A stretch of 43,587 bases of DNA from positions 1-43,587 of the IMG/VR virus record IMGVR_UViG_3300012942_000015. One strand, 5' to 3'. A program made the position numbers and the translations under genes. The DNA is from a virus. Its lineage: Duplodnaviria; Caudoviricetes. Shown here in pieces: positions 1 to 17,066 of the stretch. Numbering within the stretch: the stretch's first letter is position 1; each line of letters begins with the position of its first letter. The notes beneath the pieces are model-generated. The model did not search any database. It was not told the origin of the DNA and was given only the letters and a program-made list of their open reading frames with translations.

Positions 1-123
1 GACTCGTGGACGCTCGTCTCGGAATGGGAGTCTGGCCGGTGTGCCTCCGTGATCGACGTCACTCGCGCCAGCACGCCGCTCCGGAAACCGGCAGGTTCTT
101 GGTTCGAGTCCAAGTGGGGGAGC
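1..123. repeat. Left copy of 123-bp terminal direct repeat (circular assembly overlap)
   Basis: Identical to 43465-43587; the repressor reading frame runs continuously across the join. Confidence 0.95.
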
Positions 124-401
124 TCCTTCGGCCCGGTCTTTTCGAAGACCGGGCCTTTTTCGTATCTGAGCCACTCGAGCCGCGCGCCCGTCGCATAGGC
201 GATCGCACTCAGGACGGTGTCCTTCGGTCGCTGATTGCCTGCCTCGTACTTCGCGAGCGTGCCGCGATCGGTTCCGATGATCCGCGCGAACTCTGTCTTG
301 TGCGTACCGAAGCCGACAATTTCGCGGACCTTCCGAATGCGATCGCCCACATGGAACGGCGACTCATCCCAGGGATTGTGGAGTGGCGTCACGTTGCTCA
401 T
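1..401 (-). CDS. Immunity repressor, Xre/cI-type HTH; 5' part (ATG at 401). Continues across the circular join to TAA at 43425; 146 aa in total
   Basis: Manual translation: MSNVTPLHNPWDESPFHVGDRIRKVREIVGFGTHKTEFARIIGTDRGTLAKYEAGNQRPKDTVLSAIAYATGARLEWLRYEKG... Typical HTH_3 pattern, divergent from a cro/xis-like gene, upstream of the integrase. Not in the ORF track. Confidence 0.9.
   Translation of the reverse strand, partial: MSNVTPLHNPWDESPFHVGDRIRKVREIVGFGTHKTEFARIIGTDRGTLAKYEAGNQRPKDTVLSAIAYATGARLEWLRYEKGPVFEKTGPKELPHLDSNQEPAGFRSGVLARVTSITEAHRPDSHSETSVHE
86..123 (+). other. attP common core: 3' half of a tRNA, probably tRNA-Asn(GTT)
   Basis: AACCGGCAGGTTCTTGGTTCGAGTCCAAGTGGGGGAGC reads as anticodon 3' stem CCGGC, variable loop, T arm CTTGG-TTCGAGT-CCAAG, acceptor strand TGGGGGA and discriminator G. 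No 5' half. Asn identity is recalled from actinobacterial tRNAs, not searched. Confidence 0.85.
130..160 (+). terminator. Intrinsic terminator just after the att core; would terminate the reconstituted tRNA in the prophage
   Basis: GGCCCGGTCTT-TTCG-AAGACCGGGCC perfect 11-bp stem followed by TTTTT. Confidence 0.85.
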
Positions 402-507: not shown

Positions 508-738
508 GTGACGAAAAACCCGCAAGTGCTGATTTCGACGCGAGAAGCTGCCGCGATCCTCAAGGAGGATCCTCGCAGCGTCCAGCGCAAAGCATCCGCA
601 GGCACGCTCCCATTCGTCCAGAAAATGCCTGGCGCGAAGGGTGCCTACATCTTCGACGAGGCCTCGATCCGCAAGTTCAAGGAAATCGCGGATAAGGAAT
701 CCGCCGCGCTCGCCGAGGACGATGGGGACGAGCAGTGA
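508..738 (+). CDS. Cro/Xis-like helix-turn-helix DNA-binding protein
   Basis: LISTREAAAILKEDPRSVQRKASAGTLP...GAYIFD is an HTH_17/MerR-like pattern; divergent from the repressor. Confidence 0.8.
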   Translation: MTKNPQVLISTREAAAILKEDPRSVQRKASAGTLPFVQKMPGAKGAYIFDEASIRKFKEIADKESAALAEDDGDEQ

Positions 739-1244
739 TCGTCCCGGTTAGCGAAGCAGATAGTCGAGCTGCGCACGTAGACGAGATGGCTCGTCGGTCT
801 CGTACAGCAGCCACGGAACGGCGTGCCCAGTCTCAGGTCGTGCTGGCACAAACTTCGCGCGGCACCAGACGGCCACGCCTTGTGTCTGCAGTTCGGCGAT
901 CGGCTCTTCTATCGCTTTCGCCTCTCGCTCCGTCGCGTACGCGATCGCACGGCCCCCGAGGAACAGTCCCAGCGTGGACTGGTCTTCGGGCGGATCAGAC
1001 ACGCGCCGCAGCTGTAATAGAAGGTTCGGCTGTTCGAAAGCCGTGCGGCCATCTACGGCCAGCGGCGCCGGCCATTCTTTCGACTCCGCCGCGGATCGGA
1101 TCTCGCGCAACCAGCCCGCTGGTCCCGGCACCAAATCGGCCGTATGCCACGAGCGCACCGGCGTATCCAACACATACACGTCTCCAAGCAACATGCGCAC
1201 ATCCTTCACCAACTGCGCTCGCCGAGGGTGAGGTGCAGCAGTGA
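735..1244 (+). CDS. Possible bridge ORF antisense to 748-1194
   Basis: GTGA overlaps with neighbours at both ends; Arg/Pro-rich product that is not obviously protein-like. Confidence 0.35.
   Translation: MIVPVSEADSRAAHVDEMARRSRTAATERRAQSQVVLAQTSRGTRRPRLVSAVRRSALLSLSPLAPSRTRSHGPRGTVPAWTGLRADQTRAAAVIEGSAVRKPCGHLRPAAPAILSTPPRIGSRATSPLVPAPNRPYATSAPAYPTHTRLQATCAHPSPTALAEGEVQQ
748..1194 (-). CDS. Hypothetical protein, possibly HIRAN-like
   Basis: Globular composition; QLRRVSDPPEDQSTLGLFLGGRAIAYATEREAKAI resembles the HIRAN pattern. ATG at 1194 follows AAGGA; alternative starts at 1209 and 1212. Confidence 0.6.
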   Translation of the reverse strand: MLLGDVYVLDTPVRSWHTADLVPGPAGWLREIRSAAESKEWPAPLAVDGRTAFEQPNLLLQLRRVSDPPEDQSTLGLFLGGRAIAYATEREAKAIEEPIAELQTQGVAVWCRAKFVPARPETGHAVPWLLYETDEPSRLRAQLDYLLR

Positions 1245-1516
1245 TCTATCTGAAGTCGTTCGTGCTTGTCGGTGTGCTGTTCATTCCGTGGGCTCTGCGG
1301 GATCCTCAGTCTCTTCTTGCCACGCTTCCATGTCTCGGAGTGTTCGTCGCTCTAGTCGTCTCCATCTGCGCCATCGGCGAGGCATCGGAGTTCCTGCTTC
1401 AGCGGAGGACGGGAACGGCCAGGAGAACGGCAGCGCGTTCAGCCGCACGGTCACGGTCCGCCGCGGAACCGTCAACCAGGTCAGCTTTCTCGGGGCGTGG
1501 AGGTACTGCACGATGA
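1241..1516 (+). CDS. Possible small membrane protein or bridge ORF
   Basis: GTGA and ATGA overlaps at its ends, GAGGTG SD-like sequence upstream, two hydrophobic N-terminal segments. Confidence 0.4.
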   Translation: MIYLKSFVLVGVLFIPWALRDPQSLLATLPCLGVFVALVVSICAIGEASEFLLQRRTGTARRTAARSAARSRSAAEPSTRSAFSGRGGTAR

Positions 1517-1874
1517 GCTCCGCCGAATCCATGTCATCCCGCTTCAGTGCGATGAAGATCCGCATCGATCGCCCTGCCTCCAGTTGCGGCACCCGCTGCG
1601 CCCACCGGCTCCCGTGGATCTCATCTGGCCGCTTCAACGGCGTGGTGACGTCGCATAAGTGCCCGATGAGGCTGACATCGAACGCCGTCCCATCGCCGGC
1701 ATTCGTAACCTCAACCCACAACTCCGTGTGGCCCTCGACCGGGCTGAGGAATGAACGGTCCGTCGACAACGCGTCGAACACGAGTCGTGGCCTCGGCCGA
1801 TCCCACCATCGGATCCCCAACGTCACCGCCGCTGACACCAACGCTGCTGTCGGCACGACTTGCCACCACTCCAC
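1281..1874 (-). CDS. Membrane-anchored hypothetical protein, leaderless
   Basis: GTG at 1874 is 7 nt after TAGGCT; N-terminal TM segment WWQVVPTAALVSAAVTLGIRWW, then a beta-rich domain (VEVTNAGDGTAFDV). Confidence 0.7.
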   Translation of the reverse strand: MEWWQVVPTAALVSAAVTLGIRWWDRPRPRLVFDALSTDRSFLSPVEGHTELWVEVTNAGDGTAFDVSLIGHLCDVTTPLKRPDEIHGSRWAQRVPQLEAGRSMRIFIALKRDDMDSAELIVQYLHAPRKLTWLTVPRRTVTVRLNALPFSWPFPSSAEAGTPMPRRWRRWRRLERRTLRDMEAWQEETEDPAEPTE

Positions 1875-1929
1875 GTACGAGAGCCTAAGGGCGCTCGCGG
1901 CCATCGCCGAGGGCGAGGCGCAGCAATGA
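1513..1929 (+). CDS. Possible bridge ORF antisense to 1281-1874
   Basis: ATGA overlaps at 1513-1516 and 1926-1929; ends AEGEAQQ like the 735-1244 ORF (AEGEVQQ). Confidence 0.3.
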   Translation: MSSAESMSSRFSAMKIRIDRPASSCGTRCAHRLPWISSGRFNGVVTSHKCPMRLTSNAVPSPAFVTSTHNSVWPSTGLRNERSVDNASNTSRGLGRSHHRIPNVTAADTNAAVGTTCHHSTYESLRALAAIAEGEAQQ

Positions 1930-2507
1930 GCGCAAAGCTGATGGTGAGCCTGCGTGGCCCGGTGCGGCGGGAGTGGTCAGTTCTGCTTGCGGGCGATCTC
2001 TTCGATAGCGCGAGCGAGATCTCGGACGGCCTCCGCGAGGTATCGGGTCCCGTAGTCCTTGGAATTGTTGACGGCGTTGTCTGCAGCGCGCTTGGCGCGA
2101 CTGGCGTATGTGACGGCGGTGCTGTTGGACATGAAGATGTTCCTCCTGCGGTCGACGGTCAGGTGCGGGATACACCTGATGCCGTCACGAAGACCGTACG
2201 AGGGACCGCCGACACCGAACCCTCCTGCGGCGGTGTTGGCAGGCGCGCCGGGTCGAGCTCACCGGGCTCCCCGGCGCGCCCCGACTTCCTCAAGCAGGTC
2301 CACGACTCCGGCGTGCATATCGAAGAGCTCGGCCATTCTCTGGTCGAGTTCACCAAGAACTCCTCGGTCACGAGTCGCGGCACCCTCCCGCGCAGCGCGT
2401 CCGAGGCTACTGGCGCACCCGAATGCGCCGGTACACCCGCGTCGGCGGCCGGACCCGCAGCCGACCCGAACCCCTACGGTTCCGGCCCCGACGCGGAGAC
2501 ACGGTGA
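1926..2507 (+). CDS. Hypothetical or bridge ORF spanning the antisense gene 1977-2132
   Basis: ATGA start overlap; GTGA end overlap with the antirepressor frame. Confidence 0.4.
   Translation: MSAKLMVSLRGPVRREWSVLLAGDLFDSASEISDGLREVSGPVVLGIVDGVVCSALGATGVCDGGAVGHEDVPPAVDGQVRDTPDAVTKTVRGTADTEPSCGGVGRRAGSSSPGSPARPDFLKQVHDSGVHIEELGHSLVEFTKNSSVTSRGTLPRSASEATGAPECAGTPASAAGPAADPNPYGSGPDAETR
1977..2132 (-). CDS. Small 51-aa helical protein (not in ORF track)
   Basis: MSNSTAVTYASRAKRAADNAVNNSKDYGTRYLAEAVRDLARAIEEIARKQN; strong AGGAGG RBS; candidate -10 TACGGT at 2198-2193 and a 5' hairpin at about 2154-2186. Confidence 0.7.
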   Translation of the reverse strand: MSNSTAVTYASRAKRAADNAVNNSKDYGTRYLAEAVRDLARAIEEIARKQN

Positions 2508-3244
2508 TAGCGATGGCCGCGCGCACGGATCGTCCGATCATCCCGTTCCGGTGGGTGGGGCACCACGTCGACATCTGCGCTGTGCACACTGAGTTCGAGG
2601 TGCGGTTCATCGCCCGCGACATTCTCGACGCTGTCGGCCTCGACGTCGACGCGACGCTCGGCGCGCAACCATCGCATGAGGGCTTCCTCGAGGAGCACGC
2701 CGACGCGACCGCGTGGACGTTGGACGAGATCCGCACCGTGCTCGACCCGATCGCGTCGACGCCGCTCGCCCGCGAGCTGATGACATGGCTCGCTGCGCGT
2801 GCTGCAGAGGTCGACGCGATGCGGCACATGCAGCACGAAGCACCGCAGCGGCCGCCCGTGCTGCTGCCCACAGTGGATCCCGCCGCGGTCCCGGACACCG
2901 TGCCCGCCGTGGATGAGCCGCGCACCTGGTCGGTCGCGCAGACGGCGCGGATCCTGTCGCGGGACCCGTCGATCCAGATCGGGCAGCAAGGACTCTTCGA
3001 CTGGTTGCACGTGCACGCATGGATCGACAAGCGCGGCGAGGTGTGGATCCCGAACCGCGACGTCGTGTTCATCGGCTACCTCACCCGCCTGGACCGCAAG
3101 ATCCCCGGTCACCACGACCTCTACCCGCAGGTGCTGATCACGGAGCTCGGCATCCAGGCGCTGCACCAGCGCATGGGCGGCACCGCAGACCTCGACCTGA
3201 ACCGCCACCAGCTGATGCTCGTCGAAGACGGAGACACGCAATGA
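2504..3244 (+). CDS. Antirepressor (Bro-N-like N-terminus, ANT/KilAC C-terminus)
   Basis: FIARDILDAVG at the N-terminus; WSVAQTARILSRDPSIQIGQQGLFDWL...PQVLITELGIQAL is typical of KilAC. Start at 2504 or 2513. Confidence 0.8.
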   Translation: MIAMAARTDRPIIPFRWVGHHVDICAVHTEFEVRFIARDILDAVGLDVDATLGAQPSHEGFLEEHADATAWTLDEIRTVLDPIASTPLARELMTWLAARAAEVDAMRHMQHEAPQRPPVLLPTVDPAAVPDTVPAVDEPRTWSVAQTARILSRDPSIQIGQQGLFDWLHVHAWIDKRGEVWIPNRDVVFIGYLTRLDRKIPGHHDLYPQVLITELGIQALHQRMGGTADLDLNRHQLMLVEDGDTQ

Positions 3245-5346: not shown

Positions 5347-5594
5347 CACGCAACCGCGCACAGCACCGACGCGACCGGGCCAACCCGCACGCCGACTTCG
5401 AATTCCCGCCACGCAGGCAGGCACGCCGCGGCGACCGATGGTGGGTGCGCCGTTCCCCACGCGGCACCTGGCTCGCCGGACCGAAACGCTACCGCGTCTA
5501 CGTCGACCCCGCCTGCCTGCACCTCTACCTCGAATTCGCCACCTGGACCGACGCCCTCGCCTTCGCGTTCACAAGAGCAGGTGCACGCCGATGA
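5343..5594 (+). CDS. Hypothetical protein
   Basis: ATGA overlaps at both ends. Confidence 0.65.
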   Translation: MTRNRAQHRRDRANPHADFEFPPRRQARRGDRWWVRRSPRGTWLAGPKRYRVYVDPACLHLYLEFATWTDALAFAFTRAGARR

Positions 5595-6412
5595 AGCCGC
5601 CGTTCCCATACTTCGGCGGCAAGACCCGCCTGGCCGAGCGGATCGTCGAACGATTCCCCGAGCACCTCCACTACGTCGAGCCGTTCTTCGGCGCCGGCAG
5701 CATCCTGCTCGCGAAGCCGATCTCCGCGACGGAGACCGTCAACGACATCGACGGCGACGTCGTCTGCTTCTTCCAAATCCTCCGCGATCGCCCCGACGAG
5801 CTCGAGCGTGTCTGCGCTCTCACCCCTCACTCGCGCGCCGAGTACGAGACCTCAAAGTCCCGCGACCAGGTGGACGAGCTCGAGCGTGCACGACGCGTAT
5901 TTGTCCACCTCACGCAGTCCCGCGCCTCCACACTTCGCCCCACCGGCTGGCACCACCGCCTGGACTCGCACCGCGGCGACGCCGCGCGCTCGCGACCCCG
6001 ATACCTCCACACCCTCACCGACCGATTCGCCGGCATCGCGGAACGCCTGCTCAACGTCACCTTCGAATGCCGCGACGGCATCGACGTGATCCGCGACTAC
6101 GGACGACGACCCGACGTGCTCCTCTACGTCGACCCGCCATACCTCCACACCTCGCGCAGCGCGCGCGGCGGATCCGGCGGCTACGCACACGAATTCGGGC
6201 GCGCCGACCAACACGCCGAGCTGCTCGACGCGCTCGCGGAATGCACAGCCGCCGTCATCGTGTCCGGGTACGACTCAGCCCTGTACCGCGACCGCCTCGC
6301 CACCTGGGAACGCACCAGCCTCATCGCCCTCGACGGCGCCGGTCAGAAACGCCAAGAAGTCATCTGGCAGAACCGTCCCGCCCACCCCGCACTATTCGAG
6401 GTCACAGCATGA
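5591..6412 (+). CDS. DNA adenine methyltransferase (D12/Dam-like)
   Basis: PFPYFGGK, YVEPFFGAGS (SAM binding), VNDIDG and catalytic YVDPPY. Confidence 0.92.
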   Translation: MKPPFPYFGGKTRLAERIVERFPEHLHYVEPFFGAGSILLAKPISATETVNDIDGDVVCFFQILRDRPDELERVCALTPHSRAEYETSKSRDQVDELERARRVFVHLTQSRASTLRPTGWHHRLDSHRGDAARSRPRYLHTLTDRFAGIAERLLNVTFECRDGIDVIRDYGRRPDVLLYVDPPYLHTSRSARGGSGGYAHEFGRADQHAELLDALAECTAAVIVSGYDSALYRDRLATWERTSLIALDGAGQKRQEVIWQNRPAHPALFEVTA

Positions 6413-7302: not shown

Positions 7303-7642
7303 CGCCGACACGGTCCGCGCCTGGCAACTCGTCCTCAACGACGTCGCGTACCAGGCCGGCCTCGACGCGCTGCGGAACCACTTCGCGGACCCGAACCACG
7401 GAACCGAGTTCCTCAAGCCCGCGCACATCACCGCACAGATCGTCGCCGCCGCACCGTCGGTGCAGCTGCCGCCTCGAGCTGGTACGGGGGAGTGCACGGT
7501 GCACGCCGGCTACCCGGTGATCACCGCCGACGGACGCTGCGACCAATGCCGGCGTCATCCCGAGGACCTTCTGCCGGACGCGGCACCGGTCGAGTACGTG
7601 CACTTCGACGCGGCCGCCATGACTGCGGGCAGGACCGCCTGA
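7238..7642 (+). CDS. Putative helicase loader/inhibitor-like protein
   Basis: MNLTETAQLLTIASTLD...VRAWQLVL...FLKPAHI pattern typical of the gene after the initiator; GGAGG RBS. Confidence 0.65.
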   Translation: MNLTETAQLLTIASTLDGIRRDADTVRAWQLVLNDVAYQAGLDALRNHFADPNHGTEFLKPAHITAQIVAAAPSVQLPPRAGTGECTVHAGYPVITADGRCDQCRRHPEDLLPDAAPVEYVHFDAAAMTAGRTA

Positions 7643-8124
7643 TGGCCGTCGCCGAACCGATCCAGGACCGCGCGATCGCCACACGCCAGAAGATTCTCGA
7701 CGCCGCCCAGAACGTCATCCTCGCCGACGGCGCATTCCGCGCCACCACAGCCGCCGTCGCCGCCACAGCCGGCGTGTCCATCGGCACCGTCTACCGGTAC
7801 TTCGAAGACATGCCCGCGATCCTCCACGAGCTCGGCTGGGCCGCCATCCGCATCAGCCCAGGAAAGGACGACCCGATGCCGACATCCGTGCTGCCCAGCA
7901 GCTTCCAGATCGAAGCCGAATACCTCCACCTGTACGTCGGTCGCCGCATCGCCGTCCGCGTCGACATCGGCGCGATCCCGTTCACGATCCAGACCGTCCG
8001 CCACGAACCCGAGCGCCGCACCGTGATCGTGGAAGTCGATACCCCGATGATCGAGCCGCTCGAGATCGAGTTCGTTCCCGGCGACATTGTCGAGGTGCAG
8101 CATGTCGCACCGGTGATCGCATGA
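7642..8124 (+). CDS. TetR-type HTH fused to a small beta-rich domain
   Basis: TRQKILDAA...TTAAVAATAGVSIGTVYRYF is TetR_N; the C-terminus is unlike a TetR ligand domain. Confidence 0.75.
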   Translation: MAVAEPIQDRAIATRQKILDAAQNVILADGAFRATTAAVAATAGVSIGTVYRYFEDMPAILHELGWAAIRISPGKDDPMPTSVLPSSFQIEAEYLHLYVGRRIAVRVDIGAIPFTIQTVRHEPERRTVIVEVDTPMIEPLEIEFVPGDIVEVQHVAPVIA

Positions 8125-8495: not shown

Positions 8496-8737
8496 AGAAG
8501 AGCATCGCCATCGAAACCGACCCGCGCTTCCGGGACCGCGTGAAGGTCGTCGTCATCGTCGAAGGCGACTTCGCCGACGTCGTCACCGACACGATGGCCG
8601 CGTTCGAGGAGACGTCGAAACGCCTGCAGCGCCTGAGTGACGAGCGTGAGGCGCGCGCTGCGCACAGGCGCGGAAACGGCGGCGCAGTGTCACCCGATCA
8701 CCCGAAGTGCCCGCCGGCGACTCCTCCCGCAGCGTGA
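8492..8737 (+). CDS. Hypothetical protein
   Basis: GTGA overlap; AAAGG RBS. Confidence 0.6.
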   Translation: MKKSIAIETDPRFRDRVKVVVIVEGDFADVVTDTMAAFEETSKRLQRLSDEREARAAHRRGNGGAVSPDHPKCPPATPPAA

Positions 8738-8994
8738 TGCCCGCCCCGACCGTGGCCGATCTGATCGACTTCGCCGCCGCCCACGAGGGCTGGCCGCGCG
8801 GCCGACTCGAGGAGGCGATCAGGACCCGGTTCGGGGTGTCACCGGCCCGCTACTACCAGCTCCTCCACCGTGCCGCCGGCACCCGCGACGCGGCAGAGCA
8901 CGACCCGACCACCACCCGGCGCATCCTCACCCGGATGGGTGCGCACCTGAAACACCGACAGGAGAGAACACCATGGCCGAATTCTTCGAACTGA
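8737..8994 (+). CDS. DUF3263-like protein
   Basis: LIDF...EEAIRTRFGVSPARYYQLL...AAEHDP. Confidence 0.75.
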   Translation: MPAPTVADLIDFAAAHEGWPRGRLEEAIRTRFGVSPARYYQLLHRAAGTRDAAEHDPTTTRRILTRMGAHLKHRQERTPWPNSSN

Positions 8995-15917: not shown

Positions 15918-16406
15918 TCACATTTGCGCGAACGCTTGCAGGAAGGTGTCGTCGAGCCCCTCGAGCCATTCGATGGCTTCAGTATCCGAGTCGCCGCGCA
16001 CGGCAGCCGCCGCAGCTCGTTTTCCATACCGAACAGCCTGCCTCGTTGTTTGCGCCGGCCTGAACTCATCATCGTCCGCGATGACGCGCAGCACGTCCGC
16101 GTTCCAGAACGCGTCTTCCATCGACATCAGCGCACTTCGAAGACGCGTGTCCGGCATGAGAAGAACCGCGATGCTCAGGTCATGCTGCAACTTTCGATCA
16201 CCCACAGCGTCTGCACGGCGCTCATCAAACGCGTTGATGAGCTTCAGCACGTCCATCGCGCGCGACCGCAGGTTCTCACGATCCGCCCGCGCCTCCTCGC
16301 GCTTCGCCATCCGCAACGCCATCGAGTTCGTCGACAACGCAGCCAACCACGCGAACAACCCACCGACGCCGGCGCCAGCTACCGGACCGACCCAACTGAA
16401 GTCCAT
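15918..16406 (-). CDS. Membrane-anchored hypothetical protein, leaderless
   Basis: ATG at 16406 is 6 nt after TATGTT; N-terminal TM WVGPVAGAGVGGLFAWLAAL, then helical domain. Confidence 0.75.
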   Translation of the reverse strand: MDFSWVGPVAGAGVGGLFAWLAALSTNSMALRMAKREEARADRENLRSRAMDVLKLINAFDERRADAVGDRKLQHDLSIAVLLMPDTRLRSALMSMEDAFWNADVLRVIADDDEFRPAQTTRQAVRYGKRAAAAAVRGDSDTEAIEWLEGLDDTFLQAFAQM

Positions 16407-16541
16407 CGCCAAAACATAGCGCGACCCGAATCCGCGGCGCTCGCCGAAGCGACACGCCGAGAAACACGCGGTTGCACGGGGGATGCTTGACAAGCGTGCA
16501 AGATTACAGACCGTAAGCTTGCGCCACGCGCGTAGATGATG

Positions 16542-16790: not shown

Positions 16791-17066
16791 TCAGGCGTGC
16801 CAGAAGTGGTTCGGACTGACCGAGTAGTAGATCAGCCAGATGATCGGGATCCCGAGGATGCAGGTCAGCACGATCCACAGCGTGAGGCTGTGGCCCTTCT
16901 GCTGGCGCACGTACGAGACGTTCATCCCGTTCGCGGTGCGGCCGCTCGTCTGTTTGCTCGCGGGCGGGGGAGTCTGGTCGGGCGCGTAGATCGTCCACTG
17001 GGAGCCGTCCCAGTACCGCTTCCTTCCTGATCCGTCGTCGTACCAACCAGCTGCTGCATTGCTCAT
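16791..17066 (-). CDS. DUF2510-domain membrane protein, leaderless
   Basis: AGWYDDGSGRKRYWDGSQWT motif; C-terminal TM; TAGCGT 7 nt before the ATG. Confidence 0.85.
   Translation of the reverse strand: MSNAAAGWYDDGSGRKRYWDGSQWTIYAPDQTPPPASKQTSGRTANGMNVSYVRQQKGHSLTLWIVLTCILGIPIIWLIYYSVSPNHFWHA

Follow-up and report, generated by a model that had tools for sequence, protein, structure and literature searches.

Minus-strand genes and the plus-strand chain opposite them

We analysed a 43,587-nt stretch of viral DNA (IMG/VR record IMGVR_UViG_3300012942_000015; the whole stretch is called the window below) and, within it, the start of an early operon that is open on both strands. Between an xis-like gene and an antirepressor gene lie three minus-strand genes (m1, m2 and m3, together the cargo), and four plus-strand open reading frames (ORFs; bridges A to D) run across them. 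The window spans an entire virus record, which has direct terminal repeats, and Pfam and PHROG scans find in it genes for a repressor, an xis-like helix-turn-helix (HTH) protein, an antirepressor, replication proteins, a terminase and an integrase; it is a complete temperate actinobacterial phage. Since its proteins match those of phages of Gordonia, Mycobacterium and Arthrobacter, we take the host to be an actinobacterium; a soil metagenome run may be the source of the DNA. The features at the locus, with pairing values given for Shine-Dalgarno (SD) motifs, are:

3..401, minus strand: immunity repressor with an HTH domain (Pfam HTH_3, E 3e-7; phrog_2328, E 4e-15)
508..738, plus strand: xis/Cro-like HTH_17 gene, xis below (Pfam HTH_17, E 1e-6; phrog_66; homologues at 67-78%)
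735..1244, plus strand: bridge A, 169 aa, over m1 (open; GTGA at both ends; codon score -0.76)
748..1194, minus strand: cargo gene m1, 148 aa, HIRAN-like (a lead, not a family match, from ESM features and Foldseek rows)
1221..1244, plus strand: junction repeat of SD motif and RTGA (second copy 1906-1929; looser copy 704-738)
1241..1516, plus strand: bridge B, 91 aa (SD pairing -15.0, the strongest in the region; hydropathy 2.5)
1281..1874, minus strand: cargo gene m2, 197 aa, with an N-terminal hydrophobic anchor (two homologues; TAGGCT upstream)
1513..1929, plus strand: bridge C, 138 aa, over m2 (GGAGGT 7 nt before the ATG; SD pairing -10.7)
1926..2507, plus strand: bridge D, 193 aa, over m3 and ~370 nt beyond, codon-aligned over m3 (SD pairing -11.3)
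1977..2132, minus strand: cargo gene m3, 51 aa, with an AGGAGG ribosome site (codon score 0.36; phrog_36969, E 0.006)
2504..3244, plus strand: antirepressor with a KilAC domain (Pfam ANT, E 1e-9; homologues in the relatives L059, L108 and L112)

All six plus-strand ORFs listed by an earlier note on this DNA (508-738, 735-1244, 1241-1516, 1513-1929, 1926-2507 and 2504-3244) are open, and every stop overlaps the next start as RTGA, with GTGA at 735, 1241 and 2504 and ATGA at 1513 and 1926. The first of these five junctions is formed by the stop of xis, the first gene of the early operon. At the other end, a GTG of the antirepressor at 2504 overlaps the stop of D and an ATG at 2513 has an SD motif of its own (pairing -11.1); the coupled chain extends downstream to 4100. 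Scored by pairing to an anti-SD motif and ranked against all positions, the starts at 1241, 1926 and 1513 fall within the top 0.2%, 1.3% and 2.1%, respectively. A 24-nt motif is common to the ends of A and C, and a looser copy ends xis, which suggests that cassettes were gained at these junctions. Assembly error was considered as the source of the layout and rejected, as a Logan contig carries the stretch in one piece with zero differences; this contig possibly comes from the source sample and so is not independent evidence.

The earlier note had also regarded the three minus-strand ORFs as real proteins, with m1 as HIRAN-like. The three ORFs exist, and homologues or codon use speak for m2 and m3. 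Two homologues of m2 (P0003 and P0004; 36-37% identity over ~90% of the length) begin at the same M(E/D)W, which fixes its start, and the ESM similarity of m2 to unnamed Actinomycetota and phage clusters is 0.95-0.96. The codon score of m3 is phage-like, and its PHROG match is weak. The likeness of m1 to HIRAN is seen in ESM features (similarity 0.94 to HIRAN clusters of Actinomycetota) and in Foldseek, where the top three rows are HLTF HIRAN domains (E 0.27-0.45, from a poor model with a predicted local distance difference test, pLDDT, of 40). Pfam does not bear it out: m1 has no match at E 0.1, so the curated cut-off of HIRAN (PF08797) is not reached. The homologue search for m1 found only m1 itself, and tblastn in phages gave no match.

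The cargo may carry start signals of its own. TAGGCT lies 7 nt upstream of the GTG of m2, which makes m2 a likely leaderless gene as judged from this motif. TANNNT occurs 6-7 nt ahead of the start in ten cargo genes (m2 and nine in relatives), and this spacing we take to be the pattern of leaderless promoters; m1 has AAGGAT at that spacing, and a scan for the sigma-70 consensus found no promoter site. An inverted repeat (TCAGGTG...CACCTGA, 2140-2160), just upstream of the ribosome site of m3, may be an operator or a 5' hairpin. A fourth minus-strand gene at 2159-2383 or 2259-2537 was rejected for its shadow-like codons and absent family match. The suggestion that the cargo serves defence or exclusion gained no direct support, with 0 of 18 cargo or bridge proteins matched by PADLOC 2023 profiles.

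The antisense registers of these phages differ in how readily they stay open. Across 278 ordinary genes, stops occur at 0.31, 1.48 and 2.71 per 100 codons in the three registers, and the locus uses all of them: D lies over m3 in the easy, codon-aligned register, C over m2 in the middle, wobble-aligned register, and A over m1 in the hardest. At background rates A would hold 4.0 stops over m1 and C 2.9 across the whole of m2; each holds 0. The easy register is closed in m1 (3 stops) and m2 (4 stops), and these genes retain 3 and 4 TTA, CTA or TCA codons, which make up 0 of 1178 codons in register-2 bridged cargo (selected as bridged) versus 16 of 2288 outside. Given the cargo proteins, a single frame has a chance of 0.2-0.8 of being open (P of no stop 0.2-0.4 for A over m1; 0.03-0.09 for B), so the chance signal lies mainly in the phasing.

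For the chain as a whole, the null shuffled cargo codons synonymously and spacers at random, kept the end junctions and admitted any number of ORFs coupled at -1, -4 or -8. From xis to the antirepressor, closure was seen in 11 of 20,000 shuffles with random phase and in 22 of 20,000 with phase kept, in agreement with the earlier judgement that the chain exceeds chance. Single cassettes closed in 402, 2179 and 458 per 10,000 shuffles (4%, 22% and 5%); cassette 2 alone is therefore unsurprising, and the whole chain surprising.

As proteins, the bridges are uneven. The first 55 codons of B are hydrophobic and overlap the tail of m2, and the m2 codons beneath this half end in A in 17 of 35 cases versus 15 of 121 in the remainder of m2 (P 1.5e-5). 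B likely begins as a real, resident small membrane gene and continues as shadow; this second half and A have strongly non-genic codon scores. Segment 2256-2400 of D has gene-like codons and no start codon of its own nearby; it may be what is left of a resident gene that became part of the bridge. Pfam and PHROG give no family match for A, C and D, which are also unmatched in the fetched relative loci, and the deep homologue search, which covered B only, gave no true homologue; its sole match, a tandem-repeat protein, was taken as spurious. For A, C and the first half of D, any protein product is likely incidental, and dual coding in the sense of two useful proteins would fit the first half of B alone.

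Bridged and empty sites in relatives and cultured phages

No homologous module was found: DNA relatives are absent among annotated phages, no viral contig carries close relatives of m1, m2 or xis, and a metagenome scan returned only the window's own contig. Three genes (the terminase, one ParB-like and one small early gene) led to relatives, and 24 annotated regions of cultured phages or prophages, picked from xis, antirepressor and ParB matches, were added. Relatives without cargo have xis and antirepressor genes in one run, and the three that share the antirepressor (L059, L108 and L112) carry small forward genes before it, several of them hydrophobic, and no backward cargo. Bridged sites occur in the early operons of L062, L063 and L064 (two in each) and L109, and in L062 the bridges are formed by extension of the following gene at its N terminus. 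For both L064 sites, L060 is the empty allele, so that the same site can be compared filled (L064 and L109) and empty (L060). In L100 and L107, register 1 is open, and the easy register is closed by 6 stops and 1 stop, respectively. L001 was dropped as the antisense of a ClpX gene.

Cultured phages repeat the pattern. In the Gordonia genus Nyceiraevirus, a lipoprotein-like gene lies reversed behind xis in the phages Nyceirae, Phishy and Dogfish, and in each an unannotated ORF with coupling at either end runs across it; in Meyran and Ewald, the empty alleles, the two neighbours are directly coupled. One site thus accepts different cargo, each with its own bridge, or none. In GEazy, a single 360-codon frame spans two reverse genes and their spacers, and this DNA, read as two reverse genes in the GEazy annotation, is a single forward gene in that of HannahD. 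The earlier note had proposed comparing homologous modules for interrupted plus frames; across the homologous and analogous modules compared here, the frames are mostly uninterrupted, in favour of its central idea of open, coupled plus-strand frames over antisense cargo.

Counting the window's three sites, 14 of 15 in-operon sites are bridged versus 3.1 expected. When the window is excluded, homologous sites are merged and the misses L107, L068 and L094 are added, bridges are present at 8 of 12 independent sites versus 2.1 expected (P 2e-5) and at none of 14 backward-gene groups outside the early operon. These counts go back to 29 automatic antisense candidates from 58 stretches, namely 10 in-operon sites, 7 outside controls and 12 dropped (5 immunity-cassette genes, i.e. 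repressor, IrrE-like and integrase genes, and 7 probable shadows of forward genes); m1, m2 and one L064 site came from beyond this list. L100, Bunker g40, Bowser g42, Schnabeltier g42 and HannahD g44 were not counted, since they were found from the bridge side.

Several further observations concern these loci. The shared GEazy and HannahD segment (L137 2365-3447 and L142 1232-2314) consists of 1083 identical bases annotated on opposite strands, and Bunker g40, Bowser g42 and Schnabeltier g42 conceal unannotated reverse ORFs with better codon scores. The Nyceiraevirus cargo genes (L125 6588-7046, L128 2837-3214 and L130 1893-2336) have a common promoter and lipoprotein-like signal peptide and divergent mature parts, a pattern that would be expected of superinfection-exclusion lipoproteins; the annotated starts of Phishy g39 and Dogfish g35 appear too short. 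A cargo type with an N-terminal W-rich hydrophobic anchor recurs in L100 (7815-8345, minus strand), L107 (7288-7911, minus strand), m2 and the window gene at 15918-16409, and in L100 and L107 it is bridged in register 1, as is m2. Short unannotated ORFs coupled at both ends also fill gaps free of antisense genes (L133 3867-3998, L131 4652-4747, L128 12464-12643 and L127 13015-13191), and relays may accordingly not be limited to cargo.

A coupled relay and its alternatives

The layout is real and recurrent. The reading that we prefer, and consider moderately probable, is that the four forward ORFs form a coupled translational relay kept open by selection across backward cargo. In the lysogen, the repressor would shut the early promoter and the cargo would be read from its own, mostly leaderless, promoters. 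Upon induction, the early transcript would pass antisense through the cargo and damp its expression, and ribosomes would terminate and reinitiate at each RTGA with the help of the SD motifs. The relay, which would make use of the likely membrane gene in the first half of B, would let ribosomes translate without a gap over the 1.8 kb where cargo lies backwards and on into the antirepressor and the remaining early operon, shielding the RNA from Rho and passing ribosomes to the next gene. The transcript is C-rich across A and C, and a 1.8-kb insert without ribosomes, C-rich in this way, would be expected to be polar. In mycobacteria, Rho is the dominant terminator and termination-reinitiation at stop/start overlaps has been demonstrated (PMC11260477). 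Cassettes were likely swapped at the repeated SD-RTGA junctions, and the survivors would be only those with a frame open and in phase. Between sites, the bridges differ in length, register and sequence. Of 144 residues, Nyceirae and Dogfish retain 53 in the cargo and 35 in the bridge, and their differences fall mostly at cargo third positions.

Several results weigh against a relay selected for open frames. Of the 12 independent sites, four fall short under the strict test: L068 and L094 miss clearly, and the other two come close. In L107, a frame beginning at an ATG 7 nt past the upstream stop stays open as far as the next RTGA, and at Mask g51 a crossing frame ends ~80 nt short. Sites were sorted into inside and outside by hand after their bridging status had been seen, and the controls have longer spacers, hence a low chance of bridging anyway. 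In relatives the bridges lie mostly in the easy codon-aligned register, in which many genes are left open by GC content alone, and several outside controls hold 0 stops in that register. Constraint at the protein level is seen in B, and among 27 changes between GEazy, Bowser and Schnabeltier, 8 are silent for the cargo and 7 for the bridge, shares that are both at the neutral level for these three homologous cargo genes and are compatible with constraint on both frames. SD pairing is ordinary at 735 and 2504, and in a mycobacterial case the effect of lost coupling came by way of reinitiation, not Rho (PMC11260477).

Three other explanations were weighed. It is rather unlikely, in our estimate, that the forward ORFs are true dual-coded genes, either resident or new early genes with functional proteins (lysis-stage inhibitors of the cargo, for instance) that overprint the cargo or are overprinted by it. 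Such genes would fit the distortion of third codon positions in m2 beneath the hydrophobic half of B, the gene-like codons of D at 2256-2400, the forward ORFs of Bowser and Schnabeltier, which score 0.13-0.15 and are annotated as genes, and the scarcity of second-codon-position changes in the Bowser/Schnabeltier/GEazy family. They would also have precedents in phage Fc02, where gene 10 and olg1 both yield exclusion-active proteins (PMC9936078), and in Ith, which inhibits Tha from an antisense position (PMC11087260). Against them stand the strongly non-genic codon scores of A and the second half of B, the absence of a family or homologue for A to D (only B having been searched in depth), the finding that one site with different cargo has unrelated bridges of different length, and the variation in register.

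We consider it improbable, more so than dual coding, that the chain is a by-product in which GC-rich genes leave antisense frames open and the RTGAs are inherited, on the left from the preceding gene and on the right from the junction repeat; such chains would require neither selection nor translation. The 67% GC content, the 0.31 stops per 100 codons in the codon-aligned register, a null chance per site of up to 0.2-0.4, the junction repeats and the closure of cassette 2 in 22% of shuffles would all suit this explanation. The nulls keep end junctions and cargo codons, however, and still give 11-22 closures in 20,000 for the chain and P 2e-5 for the 8 of 12 sites against 2.1 expected, which is not what random placement of frame ends would produce; moreover, A, B and C lie outside the easy register, D being the only one of the four bridges to use it, and no outside group is bridged. 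A third explanation, which we regard as very improbable, holds that the relay was selected to expose cargo antisense RNA or to guard the early mRNA from RNase III or other nucleases, not to avoid Rho or feed the next gene. Convergent transcripts would pair across 1.2 kb of cargo genes, the antirepressor has a good SD motif of its own at 2513 and may not need coupling, and antisense switching has been shown in phage 80alpha (PMC11087260); for such a purpose, though, mere coverage would suffice, which leaves the exact ending of each frame on the next start unexplained.

The relay reading can be extended to a general rule, which we put forward tentatively and would rate slightly below even. Accessory genes would enter coupled early operons only backwards, as cassettes with a phased opposite-strand bridge swapped at SD-RTGA repeats; the bridges, translated at each induction, would be a nursery of new early proteins by overprinting, as in B, and many phage 'hypothetical genes' would be wrong-stranded or one strand of two. 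A relay of this kind would explain how lysogeny cargo sits inside tightly coupled operons of temperate phages without a recognisable antiterminator, and it would be a case in a DNA phage of translation being selected for its own sake. It would also offer a route to hidden lysogen-expressed genes, by searching beneath low-scoring coupled 'hypothetical' ORFs, and the rule would bear on payload placement in engineered phages. As cultured Gordonia phages include both filled and empty alleles, the question can be tested directly.

Known systems and the rest of the phage

GC-rich genomes carry shadow ORFs, long non-genic antisense frames that are unphased to both neighbours. Bridge D and most bridges of the relatives lie in the same register as such frames, whereas A, B and C and the bridges of L100 and L107 lie in others. 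The early operons of lambdoid phages are antiterminated by N, and the sieB/sas pair of phage P22 is positioned in the pL operon; here, by contrast, none of the 32 scanned proteins was recognised as an antiterminator, which is a weak negative. P22 sieB is comparable as a lysogen-expressed exclusion gene under antisense RNA control (PMC7067206).

Backward genes in phage operons that switch upon induction have been published as noncontiguous operons (PMC11087260). In the Staphylococcus aureus phage 80alpha (ith-1/tha-1, orf11, orf17 and orf72), a backward gene lies inside a phage operon, as the three minus-strand genes of the window are nested between xis and the antirepressor; the nested 80alpha gene has its own promoter, and the two states switch between lysogeny and lysis (PMC11087260). 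80alpha differs in that its transcripts alone overlap, the available part of that account making no mention of a coupled frame across the antisense gene, and in its low-GC host and the location of ith-1 in the cI operon (PMC11087260). Gene 10/olg1-olg2 of the transposable Pseudomonas phage Fc02 are antisense overlapping ORFs right behind ner, the first early gene, with one strand for lysogeny and the other for the lytic state (PMC9936078), and in the window, too, start signals and open frames are present on both strands. Fc02 yields exclusion proteins from both strands of a single conserved module, not a variable relay of frames over variable cargo, and coupling at both ends is not discussed in the portion of the source at hand (PMC9936078).

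Ambigrammatic narnaviruses likewise have a stop-free reverse frame in which translation seemingly matters over the product; as far as the consulted sections describe them, they are eukaryotic RNA viruses with one genome-long codon-aligned frame and no operon, coupling or cargo exchange (PMC8316113, PMC8155312). The window, a double-stranded DNA temperate phage, does not fall under that type, which is an RNA virus with a reverse frame over the polymerase gene. In Mycobacterium tuberculosis, the stop/start overlaps of coupled genes and upstream ORFs pass ribosomes on and untranslated RNA is exposed to Rho, yet the ORFs described in the accessible text are short riboswitch-controlled leader ORFs, not frames over antisense genes (PMC11260477). 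The earlier note had known of no description of this design. Its transcriptional half is in print (PMC11087260, PMC9936078); for the other half, bridge frames coupled at both ends as a rule, a literature search with few subscription journals and no supplements found no account. To the noncontiguous operon the window adds an actinobacterial case in which one relay uses three registers and one bridge is in part genuinely dual-coded, and the comparison adds cultured phages in which the site is either filled or empty.

Outside the relay, the repressor gene is divergent from the early operon and extends past the contig end into the terminal repeat. Its 3' part (75-170) contains a tRNA-like 3' end, with an attP-like core and an LPHLDSNQEP reading, followed by a terminator-like hairpin at 130-155. 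We take this layout to resemble integration-dependent immunity, in which attP lies inside the repressor gene, and annotated prophage records carry the same remark. Two further minus-strand genes past the end of the early operon, a membrane-anchored protein at 15918-16409 and a DUF2510 protein at 16791-17066, are unbridged and served as controls. The early operon also encodes a D12-class adenine methyltransferase (5591-6412), a TetR-type HTH protein (7642-8124) and a DUF3263 protein (8707-8994).

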